Shown: positions 5,242 to 56,224, numbered from the stretch's first letter. The stretch is DNA of 64,000 nt from Chitinophagaceae bacterium (GCA_044220945.1 JBGAQC010000008.1:117312-181311); one strand, 5' to 3'. The notes: generated from the letters alone by a model not told the origin. Translations and numbers: made by a program.

Positions 5242-6738
5242 ATGGGGATCTGGTCTGCTTCCCGCATACGAGAATGGGATGAATATACCATCCAGCATGA
5301 GCCCGTTACTCCGATCGCACTCATGGAAAGGGCGGCGCTTGCCTGTGTGAACTGGATACTGAATTCACCTTATGCTGATGAGCCCTTCCAGATTTTTTGT
5401 GGTAAAGGCAACAATGGCGGTGATGGACTCGCCATTGCCCGGTTATTATCCCGTGAAGGGAAAACAGTCCACGTTTATATAGTTGAACACGGCCGGCCTG
5501 GTACCGCCTGCTTCCAGGAGAACCTGGCAGCGCTGCATCAGGAAACGGTTCGGTTATCCTATATCAGCAATGCCTCATTGATCCCGCCAGCACCCCAGCA
5601 GGGAGTGATCATCGACGCACTGTTCGGAACCGGTTTGAACAATGCCCCTGCAGCACTGGAAGCCCAGCTGATCGAAAACATCAATGCTTGGGGATTGCCC
5701 GTGATCAGTATCGATTTGCCCAGTGGGCTGTTTGCAGACAATTCATCCCTTGGCAATGCGGTAGTCCGTGCAACACATACGCTTAGTTTTCAATGCTGGA
5801 AACTGGCTTTTCTCTTACCCGAATCCGGTGAAGCTGCCGGAAATGTACATATACTGGATATCGGATTACACCCTGATTTTCCAAAATTCATGGAGCCGGA
5901 ATTTACTGCCAGTACCCCTGAACGGGTGCAGTCGCTCACAAAGCCCAGAAGCCGTTTTACCCATAAGGGCAGTTTCGGTCATGCGGCACTGGTATGCGGA
6001 CAAAAAGGAATGATGGGTGCTGCATTGCTCAGTTGTAAAGCCTGTTTGCGTACCGGAGCCGGAAAAGTGACAGGGATCATACCTGCTGCGGGACTGGACA
6101 TCATACAATCTGCGGTACCGGAAGCCCTGACCTTTACTTCCGGCACTGATACGGTCGCTTTTTTTCCGGATGATCTGAATCGGTTTCATGCAATGGCTAT
6201 TGGTCCTGGTATCGGAACCGGCGAATTGCAGAGTAACGCCCTGAAACAACTCCTCGAAACCTATCGGGGCAAACTGGTCCTGGATGCAGATGCATTGAAC
6301 CTGCTGGCGGCAACTCCCACCCTTCAGGAAAAAATACCGCCGGGTACTATACTCACCCCCCACCCTGCAGAATGGGAACGGTTGGCTGGAAAACCGGCCA
6401 ATGATTTTGAACAGATCCGGTCGGTCATGCAATGGGCTGCCACAAAACGCTGTATCGTTGTTTTAAAAGGGCATCATACGTTCATTACAGATGGCCATTC
6501 CGCCCGTTATTTCAATTTTACCGGAAATAACGGACTGGCAAAAGCAGGCACAGGTGATGTACTTACCGGCATGATCACCGCATTCCTGGCGCAGGGGTAC
6601 CACCCCCTGGATGCGGCCTTGCTGGGCGTTTATTATCATGGCGCCGCGGCAGATCATGCGGTAGCTTCCCAGGCACCTGCTTCCCTGCTTGCTTCCGACC
6701 TGATCGGTGCCATCGGACAGGTATTACCCTTTGCCTGA
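5242..6738 (+). CDS. nnr: Bifunctional NAD(P)H-hydrate epimerase/dehydratase
   Basis: LMERAA, CGKGNNGGDG, DALFGTG, SIDLPSG, HKGSFG, GPGIG, LDADALN, LTPHPAE and GTGDVLTG. Confidence 0.93.
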   Translation: MGIWSASRIREWDEYTIQHEPVTPIALMERAALACVNWILNSPYADEPFQIFCGKGNNGGDGLAIARLLSREGKTVHVYIVEHGRPGTACFQENLAALHQETVRLSYISNASLIPPAPQQGVIIDALFGTGLNNAPAALEAQLIENINAWGLPVISIDLPSGLFADNSSLGNAVVRATHTLSFQCWKLAFLLPESGEAAGNVHILDIGLHPDFPKFMEPEFTASTPERVQSLTKPRSRFTHKGSFGHAALVCGQKGMMGAALLSCKACLRTGAGKVTGIIPAAGLDIIQSAVPEALTFTSGTDTVAFFPDDLNRFHAMAIGPGIGTGELQSNALKQLLETYRGKLVLDADALNLLAATPTLQEKIPPGTILTPHPAEWERLAGKPANDFEQIRSVMQWAATKRCIVVLKGHHTFITDGHSARYFNFTGNNGLAKAGTGDVLTGMITAFLAQGYHPLDAALLGVYYHGAAADHAVASQAPASLLASDLIGAIGQVLPFA

Positions 6739-6754
6739 ATTTTAAATTTGTTTG

Positions 6755-6784
6755 TTGATTATCACCAAGAATTCTTTACATTTG
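6755..6784 (+). promoter_or_regulatory. Bacteroidota housekeeping-sigma promoter of tRNA-Pro
   Basis: TTG at 6755-6757, 19-nt spacer, TACATTTG at 6777-6784 (TAnnTTTG consensus), 14 nt upstream of the tRNA. Confidence 0.7.
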
Positions 6785-6798
6785 CAGCCCCAAAACCT

Positions 6799-6875
6799 CG
6801 GGTGGTGGCGCAGCCCGGTAGCGCACTTGTATGGGGTGCAAGGGGTCGCTGGTTCGAATCCAGTCCACCCGACCA
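6799..6875 (+). tRNA. tRNA-Pro(GGG)
   Basis: Acceptor CGGGTGG/CCACCCG, D-stem GCGC/GCGC, anticodon arm CTTGT-ATGGGGT-GCAAG, T-arm GCTGG-TTCGAAT-CCAGT, encoded ACCA. Confidence 0.95.
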
Positions 6876-6883
6876 AGGTTAGA

Positions 6884-6910
6884 GTCCTGCAGTAATGCAG
6901 GGCTTTTTTT
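6884..6910 (+). terminator. Intrinsic terminator after tRNA-Pro, repeated at 6997-7023 and 7110-7136
   Basis: GTCCTGCA-loop-TGCAGGGC followed by T7; loops are GTAA, TTTA and GCAA in the three copies. Confidence 0.85.
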
Positions 6911-6911
6911 A

Positions 6912-7137
6912 TGCCGGTACTGTAGCCCGGTAGCGCATCCCGCCTGCGGGCGGGAGGGTCGCTGGTACGAATCCAGTCCACCCGACCAAGGTTAGAGTCC
7001 TGCATTTATGCAGGGCTTTTTTTATGCCAGTACAGTAACCCGGTAGCGCATCCCGCCTGCGGGCGGGAGGGTCGCTGGTTCGAATCCAGTCCACCCGACC
7101 AAGGTTAGAGTCCTGCAGCAATGCAGGGCTTTTTTTA
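6912..7137 (+). repeat. Two tandem 113-bp tRNA-Pro-derived units (D-loop to ACCA plus terminator) with a substituted anticodon arm
   Basis: The same GTCGCTGG anchor lies at 6845, 6958 and 7071 (exact 113-nt period). tRNA-like parts are 6924-6988 and 7037-7101; the 5' acceptor strand is absent. Confidence 0.92.
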
Positions 7138-7207
7138 TGCCCTAAACCCACTTTCATTTATGAAAAGGGAAGCCTATATTTGTTTCCCTTAACCTAACCA
7201 ATCAGCA

Positions 7208-8197
7208 ATGCAAGCGCCTGTGTATCATACTACTCCTTTGAACGATTCAAGTTTTCTGGTAACTGGTGGCGCTGGATTCATTGGGTCTCATATTGTTGAA
7301 TACCTCTTGACCAATGGTGCTAAAAAAGTCCGTGTACTGGATAACCTCAGTACCGGCAGCCTGGATAACCTGGCTCATCTTCGGCAGTTTACCCAGCTGG
7401 AGTGGATGGAAGGCGATATCCGCAATAGCGATACCTGCCGCAAGGCCGTAGCAGATATCGATTTTGTAAGTCATCAGGCGGCACTGGGTTCTGTTCCCCG
7501 TTCCATTTCAGATCCGCTCACGACCAATGAAGTCAATATTTCCGGTTTTCTGAATATGCTGGATGCTTCCCGGCTGGCAGGTGTAAAGCGCTTTGTATAT
7601 GCTGCCAGTTCCAGCACGTATGGCGACCATCCTGATCTGCCCAAGCAGGAAGGCAAGATCGGCAATCCCCTCTCCCCCTATGCCGTGACCAAATTTGTAA
7701 ATGAATTGTATGCCGGTGTCTATTCCCGCAGCTACGGATACCATACCATCGGCATGCGCTATTTCAATATTTTTGGACCCCGGCAAAACCCGAAAGGCCC
7801 CTATGCCGCTGTCATTCCCCTTTTCATTGAAGCAGCACTGCGTAAAGAAGCACCGTTCATCAATGGTGATGGACTCACCAGCCGCGATTTCACCTATGTC
7901 CAGAATGCGGTGCAGGCGAATATCCGCTCCCTATTGAAGCCGGAACTGCATTCCCACGAAGTAGTGAATATTGCCGTGGGTGATAATTTCAGCCTCAATA
8001 CTCTCTGGGAAATGATCTGCCAGCATCTCAACCTGAGTTTAGCGCCTCACTACCGGGAAACCAGGGCCGGTGATGTGCGGCATTCCATGGCCGATATCAC
8101 CAAAGCCCGGCAGCTGATCGGATATGATCCGCTCTTTACCATGGAAAACGGGCTCGGACTTACGATCGACTGGTATAAGCAGGCCCTGAGCCTTTGA
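7208..8197 (+). CDS. NAD-dependent epimerase/dehydratase (WbpP/TviC-like UDP-GlcNAc 4-epimerase)
   Basis: LVTGGAGFIGSH, HQAALGSVPRSI, YAASSSTYGD, SPYAVTK and RYFNIFGPRQNP. Confidence 0.88.
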   Translation: MQAPVYHTTPLNDSSFLVTGGAGFIGSHIVEYLLTNGAKKVRVLDNLSTGSLDNLAHLRQFTQLEWMEGDIRNSDTCRKAVADIDFVSHQAALGSVPRSISDPLTTNEVNISGFLNMLDASRLAGVKRFVYAASSSTYGDHPDLPKQEGKIGNPLSPYAVTKFVNELYAGVYSRSYGYHTIGMRYFNIFGPRQNPKGPYAAVIPLFIEAALRKEAPFINGDGLTSRDFTYVQNAVQANIRSLLKPELHSHEVVNIAVGDNFSLNTLWEMICQHLNLSLAPHYRETRAGDVRHSMADITKARQLIGYDPLFTMENGLGLTIDWYKQALSL

Positions 8198-8273
8198 TTT
8201 ACAGGGAGGAATGCGGCCGGATAAACTGTTCTTATTCAAAAGGAATCAGTTATCTTCGCTCAACTTTTCTTCC

Positions 8274-9539
8274 ATGAATGTTCTCATCCAACAGGCATTG
8301 ATAAATGACCCCGGTTCATCCCATCATGGTCAAAAAAGGGATGTCTACATTGAATCGGGTTTCATCAGGGATATCCAGCCACAGCTTTCCGTAAAAGCCG
8401 ACAAAGTCATTTCCGGCACCCAACTCACCCTTTCTCCCGGATGGTGTGATGTATTTGCTTCTTTTGCCGACCCCGGTTATGAACATAAAGAGACCCTGGC
8501 TACAGGTGCTGCAGCAGCGGCAGCCGGCGGTTATACCGATGTGATGGTGATCCCCAATACCCGTCCGGTTGTGGATTCCAAGGCCCAGGTGGAATATATC
8601 CTCCATCGCTCCCAACAACTTCCGGTTACCATTCACCCGATCGGAGCCATTTCGCGCGGAGCAGAGGGCAAGGAACTGGCGGAAATGTATGATATGCAAT
8701 CCAGCGGCGCCCTGGCTTTCAGCGATGGTACACATCCGGTGCAATCCTCCGGTCTGCTGGTAAAAGCCTTCCAGTATGTCAAGGCTTTTGATGGGGTGGT
8801 GATCCAGATCCCGGACGATACCAGCATCGCTCCTCATGGACTGATGCATGAAGGCGTGGCTTCCACCCGTTTTGGTATGCCTGGTAAACCCATTATGGCC
8901 GAAGAGATCCTTGTGGCACGTGATATCAAGCTGGCCCGCTATGCCGGCTCCAAACTGCATATAACCGGAGTCACTTCGCCCAAATCCCTGGAATATATCC
9001 GCAGGGCCAAGGAAAGCGGTATAGCGGTTACTTGTTCGGTTTCCCCGGCCCATTTGATCTTCTCCGACGAAGACCTGCACGATTACGATACCAACCTGAA
9101 AGTATATCCGCCCCTTCGTACCCCCGATCAGGTGAATGCCCTTAAAAAGGCTGTCCTGGATGGTACGGTGGATTGCATCGCCAGCCACCATTTTCCGCAT
9201 GAAACCGACAGCAAGGTCTGTGAGTTTGAATATGCGGCATTTGGCATGATCGCCCTGGAAACCGCCTATGCTGTGGTGAAAACGGCTATACCGGAGATTT
9301 CCGAAAAACGGATTGCGGAACTCTTCAGCATTCAGCCCCGGACTATTTTCGGGCTGCCCGTACCGGTCATTGAAAAAGACCAGCCTGCCGTTGTAACAGT
9401 TTATGATCCTGCGCTACAAACAAAACTGGAAAACACAGGCATCCGCTCCCGCTCCCGTAACAGCCCCTTTATTAATAAATCTTTACAAGGTGCCGTTATA
9501 GGGATCATTAACCGGAATCTGGCTTCTTTTAACCTTTAA
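8274..9539 (+). CDS. Dihydroorotase-like protein lacking the catalytic and metal-binding residues (PyrC'-like)
   Basis: Type I DHOase-like throughout (PNTRPVVD, ARDIKLA, KVYPPLR), but HxH, the other His ligands and the catalytic Asp appear substituted. Start moved to ATG 8274. Confidence 0.85.
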   Translation: MNVLIQQALINDPGSSHHGQKRDVYIESGFIRDIQPQLSVKADKVISGTQLTLSPGWCDVFASFADPGYEHKETLATGAAAAAAGGYTDVMVIPNTRPVVDSKAQVEYILHRSQQLPVTIHPIGAISRGAEGKELAEMYDMQSSGALAFSDGTHPVQSSGLLVKAFQYVKAFDGVVIQIPDDTSIAPHGLMHEGVASTRFGMPGKPIMAEEILVARDIKLARYAGSKLHITGVTSPKSLEYIRRAKESGIAVTCSVSPAHLIFSDEDLHDYDTNLKVYPPLRTPDQVNALKKAVLDGTVDCIASHHFPHETDSKVCEFEYAAFGMIALETAYAVVKTAIPEISEKRIAELFSIQPRTIFGLPVPVIEKDQPAVVTVYDPALQTKLENTGIRSRSRNSPFINKSLQGAVIGIINRNLASFNL

Positions 9540-56030: not shown

Positions 56031-56038
56031 TATCGGCG

Positions 56039-56113
56039 GGTGGATGATGGGATTCGAACCCACGACCCTCAGAACCACAATCTGATGCTCTAACCAGCTG
56101 AGCTACAACCACC
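56039..56113 (-). tRNA. tRNA-His(GTG)
   Basis: G-1 plus GTGGTTG.../CATCCAC-C73, anticodon arm TCAGA-TTGTGGT-TCTGA, TTCGAAT T-loop; CCA not encoded. Confidence 0.95.
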
Positions 56114-56224
56114 GTGTGGGCGGCAAAAATAAGACAAAATTGCTTCGCCCCAAAAATCCGGAGAACGATTTTTTCTGCAATTGCGTGAATTTAAACGTTC
56201 TTTGCAAGCCCAAACTGAACGAAA

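Follow-up and report, generated by a model that had tools for sequence, protein, structure and literature searches.

Structure of the tRNA-Pro array

The locus studied here lies within a 64,000-nucleotide stretch of a Chitinophagaceae bacterium genome (GCA_044220945.1, JBGAQC010000008.1:117312-181311), referred to below as the window, and consists of a tRNA-Pro gene directly followed by two tandem units of 113 bp, each containing a partial copy of this tRNA with a fixed GC hairpin instead of the anticodon arm. Related units occur beside tRNA genes of other, mostly Bacteroidota, genomes, where many of them adjoin a small gene for a GIY-YIG nuclease, and the window array was analyzed together with these relatives.

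All features of the array are on the + strand. The functional tRNA-Pro(GGG) gene with its encoded CCA end spans positions 6799..6875 (ARAGORN; Rfam RF00005, 56.5 bits). About 15 nt upstream of it, at 6777..6784, TACATTTG was read directly in the sequence, which we take to be a -7 promoter motif of the Bacteroidota type (assumed consensus TAnnTTTG). It is the sole motif of this type in the array, neither unit is preceded by a promoter-like motif, and a sigma-70 scan of positions 6600-7300 called no promoter. The tRNA gene ends in an intrinsic terminator with an 11-pair stem, a GTAA loop and a run of seven T (6881..6910; terminator scan and fold), followed by the two units, named unit 2 (6911..7023) and unit 3 (7024..7136), and by a terminal ATGCC (7137..7141) that marks the right edge of the repeat. 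Tandem Repeats Finder (TRF) gave a period of 113 bp with 2.6 copies and 94% matches over 6843-7141, and the tRNA gene and both units were compared by three-way alignment.

Both units have the same order of parts: ATGCC, an 8-nt spacer, a D segment, the hairpin, GGGTC, the T arm, CCACCCG-A-CCA and a terminator. In unit 2, the D segment AGCCCGGTAGCGCA (D-loop and 3' D-stem, 6924-6937) runs into the hairpin TCCCGCC-TGCG-GGCGGGA at the place of the anticodon arm (6938..6955; motif search, alignment and fold), and is followed by a T arm with the loop TACGAAT (T55A, 6961-6977), CCACCCG-A-CCA (6978-6988) and terminator 2 (6994-7023). Unit 3 is composed of the D segment AACCCGGTAGCGCA with one mismatch (7037-7050), the identical hairpin (7051..7068), a T arm with an intact TTCGAAT loop (7074-7090), ACCA, the last base of which is 7101, and terminator 3 (7107-7136). 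The alignment places the exchange precisely: the 17-nt anticodon arm CTTGTATGGGGTGCAAG is swapped for the 18-nt hairpin in both units, the 5' strands of the acceptor stem and D stem are missing, and the variable loop, T arm, CCACCCG-A-CCA and terminator are kept. The 18-mer TCCCGCCTGCGGGCGGGA occurs exactly twice in the window (6938-6955 and 7051-7068), against 0.1 copies expected by chance.

ARAGORN, Rfam, TRF, the motif search and the alignment thus confirmed the preliminary description of this locus as a tRNA-Pro gene with two 113-bp units in which a fixed hairpin stands for the anticodon arm. Its statement that the units keep the remaining parts of the tRNA holds for the variable loop, T arm, ACCA and terminator, while the D segment of unit 3 carries the mismatch and the T loop of unit 2 is TACGAAT instead of TTCGAAT. 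The three terminators have identical stems and differ in their loops (GTAA/TTTA/GCAA), and the argument that this hints at selection on structure is sound, with n = 3 copies. That the array could be an assembly artefact was excluded by independent data across both junctions: a 142-nt unitig covering 6844-6985, with the real tRNA, its terminator and the hairpin and T arm of unit 2, was present in at least five independent metagenome runs, and a separate metagenome contig bridges unit 2 and unit 3 (6975-7117).

Neither unit was called as a tRNA by ARAGORN, and Rfam RF00005 gave 19 bits for a part of unit 3 (gathering score 29) and left unit 2 unmatched. Alignment and folding agree that no acceptor stem or D stem can form in these units, which differ from canonical tRNAs in having no 5' acceptor strand and an 18-nt closed hairpin as arm. 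Frameshift-suppressor-like tRNAs with 8-nt anticodon loops were also considered and rejected on account of the missing 5' acceptor strand and the lack of a U33-anticodon register. Two antisense open reading frames (ORFs; 6742-7005 and 6909-7157) were rejected as genes, having no Pfam match and spanning the repeats.

Recurrence of the hairpin beside other tRNA genes

The exact 18-mer was searched in one genome per species, a scan that returned mostly unrelated GC hairpins. It was present in a tRNA-like context in five loci, each in its own genome, beside Pro, Val(TAC), Val(CAC), Ala, Arg and Asp tRNAs, and in all five the adjoining real tRNA has a partial copy with the hairpin where the anticodon arm would be. 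These comprise two Flavobacteriales metagenome-assembled genomes (MAGs), one with units on both sides of a live tRNA-Pro(GGG) (locus L012) and one in which Val(TAC) and Val(CAC) are each followed by one unit of their own (L047), Flaviaesturariibacter aridisoli with at least two units of 119 bp downstream of Ala(GGC) (L069), a Sediminibacterium MAG with two units upstream of Arg(TCT) (L086), and an Acidobacteriota MAG with two units upstream of Asp(GTC) (L104). The identical 18-mer was also met in a conserved repeat unrelated to tRNAs, present in several copies per genome in Oscillospiraceae and Clostridia (approximately ATTTCAATTTATTT-hairpin-AAAACTCTGCCGAGGGCTT; L002, L006, L008, L021, L035, L046, L058, L059, L095, L101, L117).

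Metagenomes were scanned with a pattern consisting of the stem, any loop of 4-5 nt, NGGTC and the start of the T loop, which returned 62 loci, about 61 of them tRNA-like. Besides the window, the stem substitutes the anticodon arm in partial copies of an adjacent tRNA in more than 60 loci, mostly from Bacteroidota. The family was delimited by an 18-19-nt hairpin, either TCCCGCC/GGCGGGA or a compensated variant of it, and the window array has the common anatomy, a partial copy of the adjacent live tRNA with the hairpin in place of the anticodon arm. The 70 distinct units adjoin 11 tRNA species, 56 of them downstream, as in the window, and 14 upstream. Downstream units have a median identity to the adjoining tRNA of 97% in the 3' part and 86% in the 14-nt D segment. 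The upstream units are mirror images: they run from the 5' acceptor strand through the D arm, the hairpin and the variable loop into the T stem, of which they keep a part, are devoid of the T loop, 3' end and CCA, and have their junctions in the T stem or T loop. Three parts recur in every unit, namely the D segment, the hairpin and the beginning of the variable loop and T stem. L012, L136, L171 and L173 have units on either side of the live tRNA, and so do L138, L175 and L187 if upstream units with imperfect stems are counted.

Many array members in the metagenome loci are truncated, and units with deletions or with a 30-nt hairpin inserted in the T loop were found (L138, L148, L161). Such a second hairpin, TCCCGCA-ATACAATAGAGAAGGAC-TGCGGGA, with a stem resembling that of the anticodon-arm hairpin, was seen in the T loop of pseudo-tRNA-Pro units in L138, L142 and L189 (reverse strand, ~826-1150). 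The spacer of upstream tRNA-Pro units, CGAAATGCGGGACAAGGTT, contains GCGGGA and was also met in sludge metagenomes. The copies in L146, L147 and L167 are almost complete, and ARAGORN reports them as odd tRNAs; its calls on hairpin pseudo-units included Lys(ctt), Asn(att), Val(aac), Gln(ttg), Gly(tcc), Gly(gcc) and '???' (odd anticodons in L129, L146, L147, L162, L167, L188 and L191). These pseudo-units may consequently raise or bias the number of tRNA genes counted in annotated genomes of Bacteroidota and in MAGs.

Association with a small GIY-YIG nuclease gene

In L012 a GIY-YIG ORF (Pfam, 56 bits) fills the gap from the live tRNA's terminator to the hairpin, and its stop codon is the TAG inside the D-loop sequence GGTAG. 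Behind the downstream unit of this locus (reverse strand, ~1150-1700), the terminator and the first 24 GIY-YIG codons occur a second time, which places a duplication boundary inside the ORF. A hidden Markov model (HMM) built from six GIY-YIG ORFs detected 32 such ORFs in 25 of 67 loci, all of them on the strand of the tRNA, and 27 end between -12 and +30 nt from the hairpin start. They have no stop codon of their own, the stop being supplied by the D loop or the hairpin loop. The proteins are 78-92 aa long (~85 aa) and contain a single GIY-YIG domain (PF01541) and no other, and the catalytic residues are kept in the 24 distinct intact full-length ORFs. Expressed in tRNA coordinates, the ORF junction differs between families, from ~4 to 15. 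The hairpin was present in every ORF-linked tRNA copy examined, and none has an anticodon arm beside the ORF.

Cassettes with the ORF are tandemly repeated with a period of ~340 bp in L137, L162 and L164 and as a mixed repeat of ~405 bp in L176. Units with and without the ORF alternate within one array in L176 and L193, the latter having two ORF-less units followed by one ORF unit and two stem variants in neighbouring units. Arrays free of the ORF, like that of the window, were found in L069, L153, L155, L161 and in parts of L176 and L193. Copy number, a point raised in the preliminary description, differs between related strains, with one cassette in L146 and two in L162. The run of seven T followed by ATGCC, which stands after all three terminators of the window and after those of the Flaviaesturariibacter array, is in L141 the junction between the terminator and the start codon of a GIY-YIG ORF (MPFFV...).

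The association was also approached from the protein side, independently of the hairpin search. At least 237 homologues of one ORF were retrieved, named sources being Flavobacterium, Chryseobacterium, Gelidibacter, and MAGs of Chitinophagales and Cyclobacteriaceae. In four out of four homologues from isolates (cultured Flavobacteriia) the GIY-YIG gene is followed by a hairpin pseudo-tRNA unit; three of these genes lie within tRNA gene clusters (Ser, Pro(TGG), Arg(TCT)) and the fourth, from Gelidibacter, at a contig end where no tRNA gene was called. The stems in these AT-richer genomes (TCCCGAT/ATCGGGA, TTCCGAT/ATCGGAA, TCCCGAC/GTCGGGA) have compensated base-pair changes. In IMG/VR, the GC-type pattern matched nine times, never in a tRNA-like context, and the AT-type pattern ten times, two of the matches being real units with GIY-YIG ORFs (L199 and L200, of the tRNA-Arg-like and tRNA-Pro(TGG) type), which are probably host tRNA flanks inside prophage predictions.

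For the nuclease itself, NCBIfam held no specific model (TIGR01453 matched below threshold, 25 bits against a cut-off of 56, and only over the first ~30 residues), a PDB sequence search returned no match, and PADLOC yielded weak generic GIY-YIG matches and no defence system.

Constraint on the stem, the loop and the T loop

Among 85 distinct units with a perfect stem, 46 different loops of 4-5 nt were counted. As the search patterns had fixed the stem, units were also collected by context only, as an 18-19-nt arm between the D-stem end and NGGT with at least six of seven positions paired; 24 units obtained in this way were free of the constraint set by the pattern, and of these 16 had a perfect stem, six had 1-2 mismatches and two the compensated GAT/ATC form. 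The loop is closer to the anticodon loop of the unit's own parent than to those of other tRNAs (permutation p ~2e-4, related units being partly dependent on each other). This trace and the 97% identity of the flanks suggest ongoing, patchy gene conversion from the live tRNA. Judged from these comparisons, the stem is maintained in spite of gene conversion, and the apparent constraint is on the paired stem or palindrome and not on the loop, a pattern more in line with recognition of a helix, in DNA or RNA, than of a loop.

The T loop shows a different pattern. In 34 downstream units its positions differ from the parent in 7.1% of cases, against 3.7% elsewhere, a modest enrichment (p = 0.03), and T55 and A58 are the commonest T-loop changes in the dead copies. 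A recurrent change of TTCGAAT to TCCGGAT (T55C + A58G), which keeps the 6-nt palindrome, arises in copies of different tRNAs (L047, L133, L136, L148, L169, L173, L177).

Origin of the window units

The architecture of the cassettes minus the ORF, the identity of the T7-ATGCC junction with the ORF start in L141 and the arrays in which both kinds of units are mixed lead us to read the window units as copies, devoid of the ORF, of the module that lies next to the tRNA in a widespread family of cassettes with a small stand-alone GIY-YIG nuclease; these cassettes reside immediately beside tRNA genes, mainly in Bacteroidota. We assign this reading a probability of roughly 0.55; on this view the window array would descend from a selfish nuclease cassette and would itself be non-autonomous. 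A full cassette is composed of the real tRNA, its terminator, the ~85-aa GIY-YIG ORF, a partial copy of the same tRNA and a further terminator, the partial copy having a conserved 7-bp hairpin with a free loop of 4-5 nt for the anticodon arm, then the variable loop, the T arm and the 3' acceptor strand. In the window, the ORF would have been lost, leaving T7-ATGCC and ~8 nt between terminator and D segment, and the remaining 113-bp module would then have been duplicated in tandem.

By analogy with the phage nuclease SegB, discussed below, we infer that the nuclease may break the tRNA locus and that repair may duplicate part of the gene with variable junctions. Unequal recombination among the repeated tRNA 3' parts and the terminators could subsequently expand and contract the arrays, and gene conversion from the live tRNA would hold the flanks nearly identical; the window units were probably amplified through recombination between these 3' parts. 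The hairpin might be a cis-element of the cassette, so that only copies with an intact stem keep propagating; our leading guess is that it is a recognition site of the nuclease or a site conferring immunity to it. For the cell, the window units probably do nothing beyond providing two extra terminators.

Several points weigh against this reading. No GIY-YIG ORF was found in the 64-kb window by HMM search and tblastn, and a nuclease acting in trans has to be assumed for its units. Unlike the homing endonucleases characterised so far, the ~85-aa proteins consist of the catalytic domain and have no domain for DNA binding, and neither a cleavage site, nor an empty target site, nor a transfer event was observed. 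The D segment, which matches the local tRNA, separates the ORF from the hairpin; the mobile core is thus interrupted, which is at odds with a simple cut-and-paste mechanism. A role of the hairpin in immunity is not straightforward either, since the live tRNA still has its anticodon arm. Finally, the searches demanded the stem in at least one unit per locus, an ascertainment bias that the protein-side and context-only tests address only in part.

A bolder proposal is that the hairpin pseudo-tRNA and the ~85-aa GIY-YIG protein together form an unrecognised class of mobile elements that targets tRNA genes, in which a bare nuclease is guided by the hairpin as a site of recognition, nicking or immunity, the tRNA flanks serve as homology arms and ORF-less units are non-autonomous and mobilised in trans. 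Taken in all these details it is possible but tentative, clearly less probable than the reading of the window units given above; that the family as a whole is a new element class has a real chance of being correct. No Rfam family, specific NCBIfam model, defence-system model or paper on this arrangement was found, within an incomplete coverage of the literature, and the family of GIY-YIG and hairpin pseudo-tRNA cassettes is apparently undescribed.

Comparison with known systems

The signs of a likeness to homing endonucleases are indirect, consisting in the association with tRNAs, the tandem amplification and the copy-number polymorphism, and intron and homing models matched below threshold only. 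The closest parallel is SegB, a free-standing phage GIY-YIG endonuclease encoded among tRNA genes, which cuts inside tRNA genes with a preference for the T-loop-like motif RAWTSGAAC, and whose breaks were experimentally shown to cause tandem segmental amplification of the tRNA and nuclease genes via homologous recombination (PMC13096335). The cassettes resemble it in having a GIY-YIG gene among tRNA genes, tandem arrays, copy-number differences between strains and, in the upstream units, junctions in the T stem or T loop. They differ in residing in bacterial chromosomes instead of T-even phages, in consisting of the catalytic domain only, with no separate DNA-binding domain, whereas SegB has an extra C-terminal part, and in being accompanied in every case by a hairpin-bearing dead tRNA copy, a feature not reported for SegB. 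Proteins of the YhbQ/YazA/Slx1 type (URI) are similar in size and have likewise a single PF01541 domain; Slx1 is a structure-selective nuclease (PMC7017083), which renders recognition of a hairpin or cruciform plausible for the ~85-aa proteins. No association of YhbQ-type genes with tRNA genes or hairpins was found in the literature searched.

With REP/RAYT systems and the subterminal hairpins of IS200/IS605, the units share a short hairpin, rich in GC, of which the stem is conserved and the loop free to vary; it appears to be propagated with a small nuclease gene and persists in copies without the nuclease. REP sequences are, in contrast, dispersed at hundreds of intergenic sites and have an HUH Y1 partner, while the hairpin described here is confined to the anticodon-arm position of dead tRNAs and is partnered by a GIY-YIG protein; both window copies lie in the array, and relatives have it in tRNA-like context only. 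The suggestion of a hairpin module spread by a mobile system, with GIY-YIG genes as one lead, is essentially borne out by the 11 tRNA species and the joined nuclease gene, but not in its REP-like form, given the lack of dispersal and of an HUH/RAYT partner. Integrative elements that duplicate tRNA 3' ends also preserve the live tRNA and displace a partial copy downstream; they differ in that here no integrase lies nearby, the copy reaches 5' into the D arm, the arm is replaced and mirror-image upstream units exist. The analogy with the 178-bp tyrT repeats (rtT) of E. coli drawn in the preliminary description is superficial: those too are tandem repeats directly downstream of a tRNA that contain its 3' end, but they comprise ~19 nt of it, are not known to have a D segment or a hairpin substitution, and belong to one lineage.

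Alternative explanations

The best surviving alternative, which we nevertheless regard as unlikely, makes the hairpin-bearing dead tRNA copies primary, either as selfish or as host-useful sequences, and the GIY-YIG gene a secondary parasite that homes just upstream of the core of D segment and hairpin. ORF-less arrays are at least as common as ORF-bearing units, the hairpin is perfect even in diverged ORF-less arrays (L153, L155), and the ORF invariably lies against one and the same side of the core, which supplies its stop, like homing endonuclease genes at their targets. This explanation provides no independent mechanism or function for the ORF-less units, and the shifting position of the ORF junction between families speaks against it. 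The presence of the hairpin in every ORF-linked copy examined fits both models.

Slightly less probable still is that the units are functional tRNA-like RNAs, acting as decoy, as regulator or, in the manner of a type III toxin-antitoxin system, as RNA antitoxin of the nuclease, the hairpin removing the anticodon while T arm and ACCA are kept. In favour of this are the purifying selection on the stem with its compensatory pairs, the T arm, 3' acceptor strand and ACCA retained in the window units, the tandem repeats beside a small nuclease gene and the near-full-length copies called as odd tRNAs. The window units are, on the other side, without the 5' acceptor and 5' D strands, have no promoter motif and are each positioned behind a strong 11-pair terminator, the T-loop positions 55 and 58 are those most often mutated, upstream-type units have neither T loop nor 3' end, many array members are truncated, and there is no Rfam match and no PADLOC system. 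Compared with ToxIN, the repeat here follows the gene and has terminators inside it. A search for RNA runs containing 6880-7200 yielded runs of unknown type, the contigs of which were DNA-like unitigs uninformative about transcript ends. The CCA-bearing tRNA-mimic RNAs envisaged in the preliminary description are for the same reasons not upheld, the mutated T loop of unit 2 and the upstream relatives devoid of T arm and CCA included, and we consider the window units unlikely to be tRNA mimics.

Scars or decoy attachment (att) sites of integrase-type elements at tRNA 3' ends are a very improbable origin and this explanation is largely refuted. Duplicated tRNA 3' parts beside a live gene are the classic footprint of such elements and two IMG/VR 'viral' contigs hold hairpin units, though these look like host tRNA flanks of predicted prophages. 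The repeat in the window starts in the D loop, the anticodon arm is swapped and is not a crossover point, and the units follow each other contiguously at 113 bp with nothing between them. The neighbours of the array are housekeeping genes (a beta-lactamase-fold protein, NnrD/YjeF, an NAD-dependent epimerase and DUF4199), a Pfam scan of the five flanking proteins found no integrase and no HUH/RAYT-type protein, and the gene associated with the relatives is a GIY-YIG nuclease and not an integrase. What stands of the idea of scars or decoys left by an element at tRNA genes is that the units are by-products of an element living there; the anatomy is not that of att sites.

An ordinary tandem duplication with a one-off chimeric recombination with the anticodon arm of another tRNA, or a chance REP-like hairpin, which could draw on units 2 and 3 being copies of each other, so that the swap was a single event within the window, and on the resemblance of the inner CCGCC/GGCGG to what we presume to be tRNA-Glu-type anticodon stems, is equally improbable and already refuted by recurrence of the same stem in dead copies of 11 tRNA species at more than 60 loci. 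Also against it are the length of the arm, 18-19 and not 17 nt, the occurrence of the hairpin at these loci in tRNA-like context only, with two copies in 64 kb and no intergenic dispersal, and, for the window, the lack of a GIY-YIG gene and of integrase or HUH/RAYT-type proteins among the five flanking proteins scanned.

Other features of the window

The other tRNA gene of the window, tRNA-His (56038-56112), has no hairpin units beside it. Motifs of the TAnnTTTG type were also found before the epimerase gene (TATATTTG, 7175-7182) and before tRNA-His (TATTTTTG, ~56132-56139, minus strand), in agreement with the window being of Bacteroidota origin. A 442-aa ORF that lies downstream of the epimerase gene (8211-9539, + strand) had no Pfam match at E <= 0.001. 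The NnrD/YjeF protein of the window, looked up by exact identity in search of syntenic relatives, matched no record.

Implications

If the cassette interpretation is correct, tRNA genes of Bacteroidota, and perhaps of other phyla, would be routinely colonised by a minimal nuclease cassette that makes a partial duplicate of the gene, the dead copy of the tRNA being marked by the fixed hairpin. It would explain a class of widely annotated but poorly understood genes for "GIY-YIG nuclease family protein" and would represent a chromosomal counterpart to the amplification of tRNA loci by SegB in phages. With ~85 aa and a 14-nt stem, it would also offer a compact system for studying how a bare GIY-YIG domain finds its substrate.

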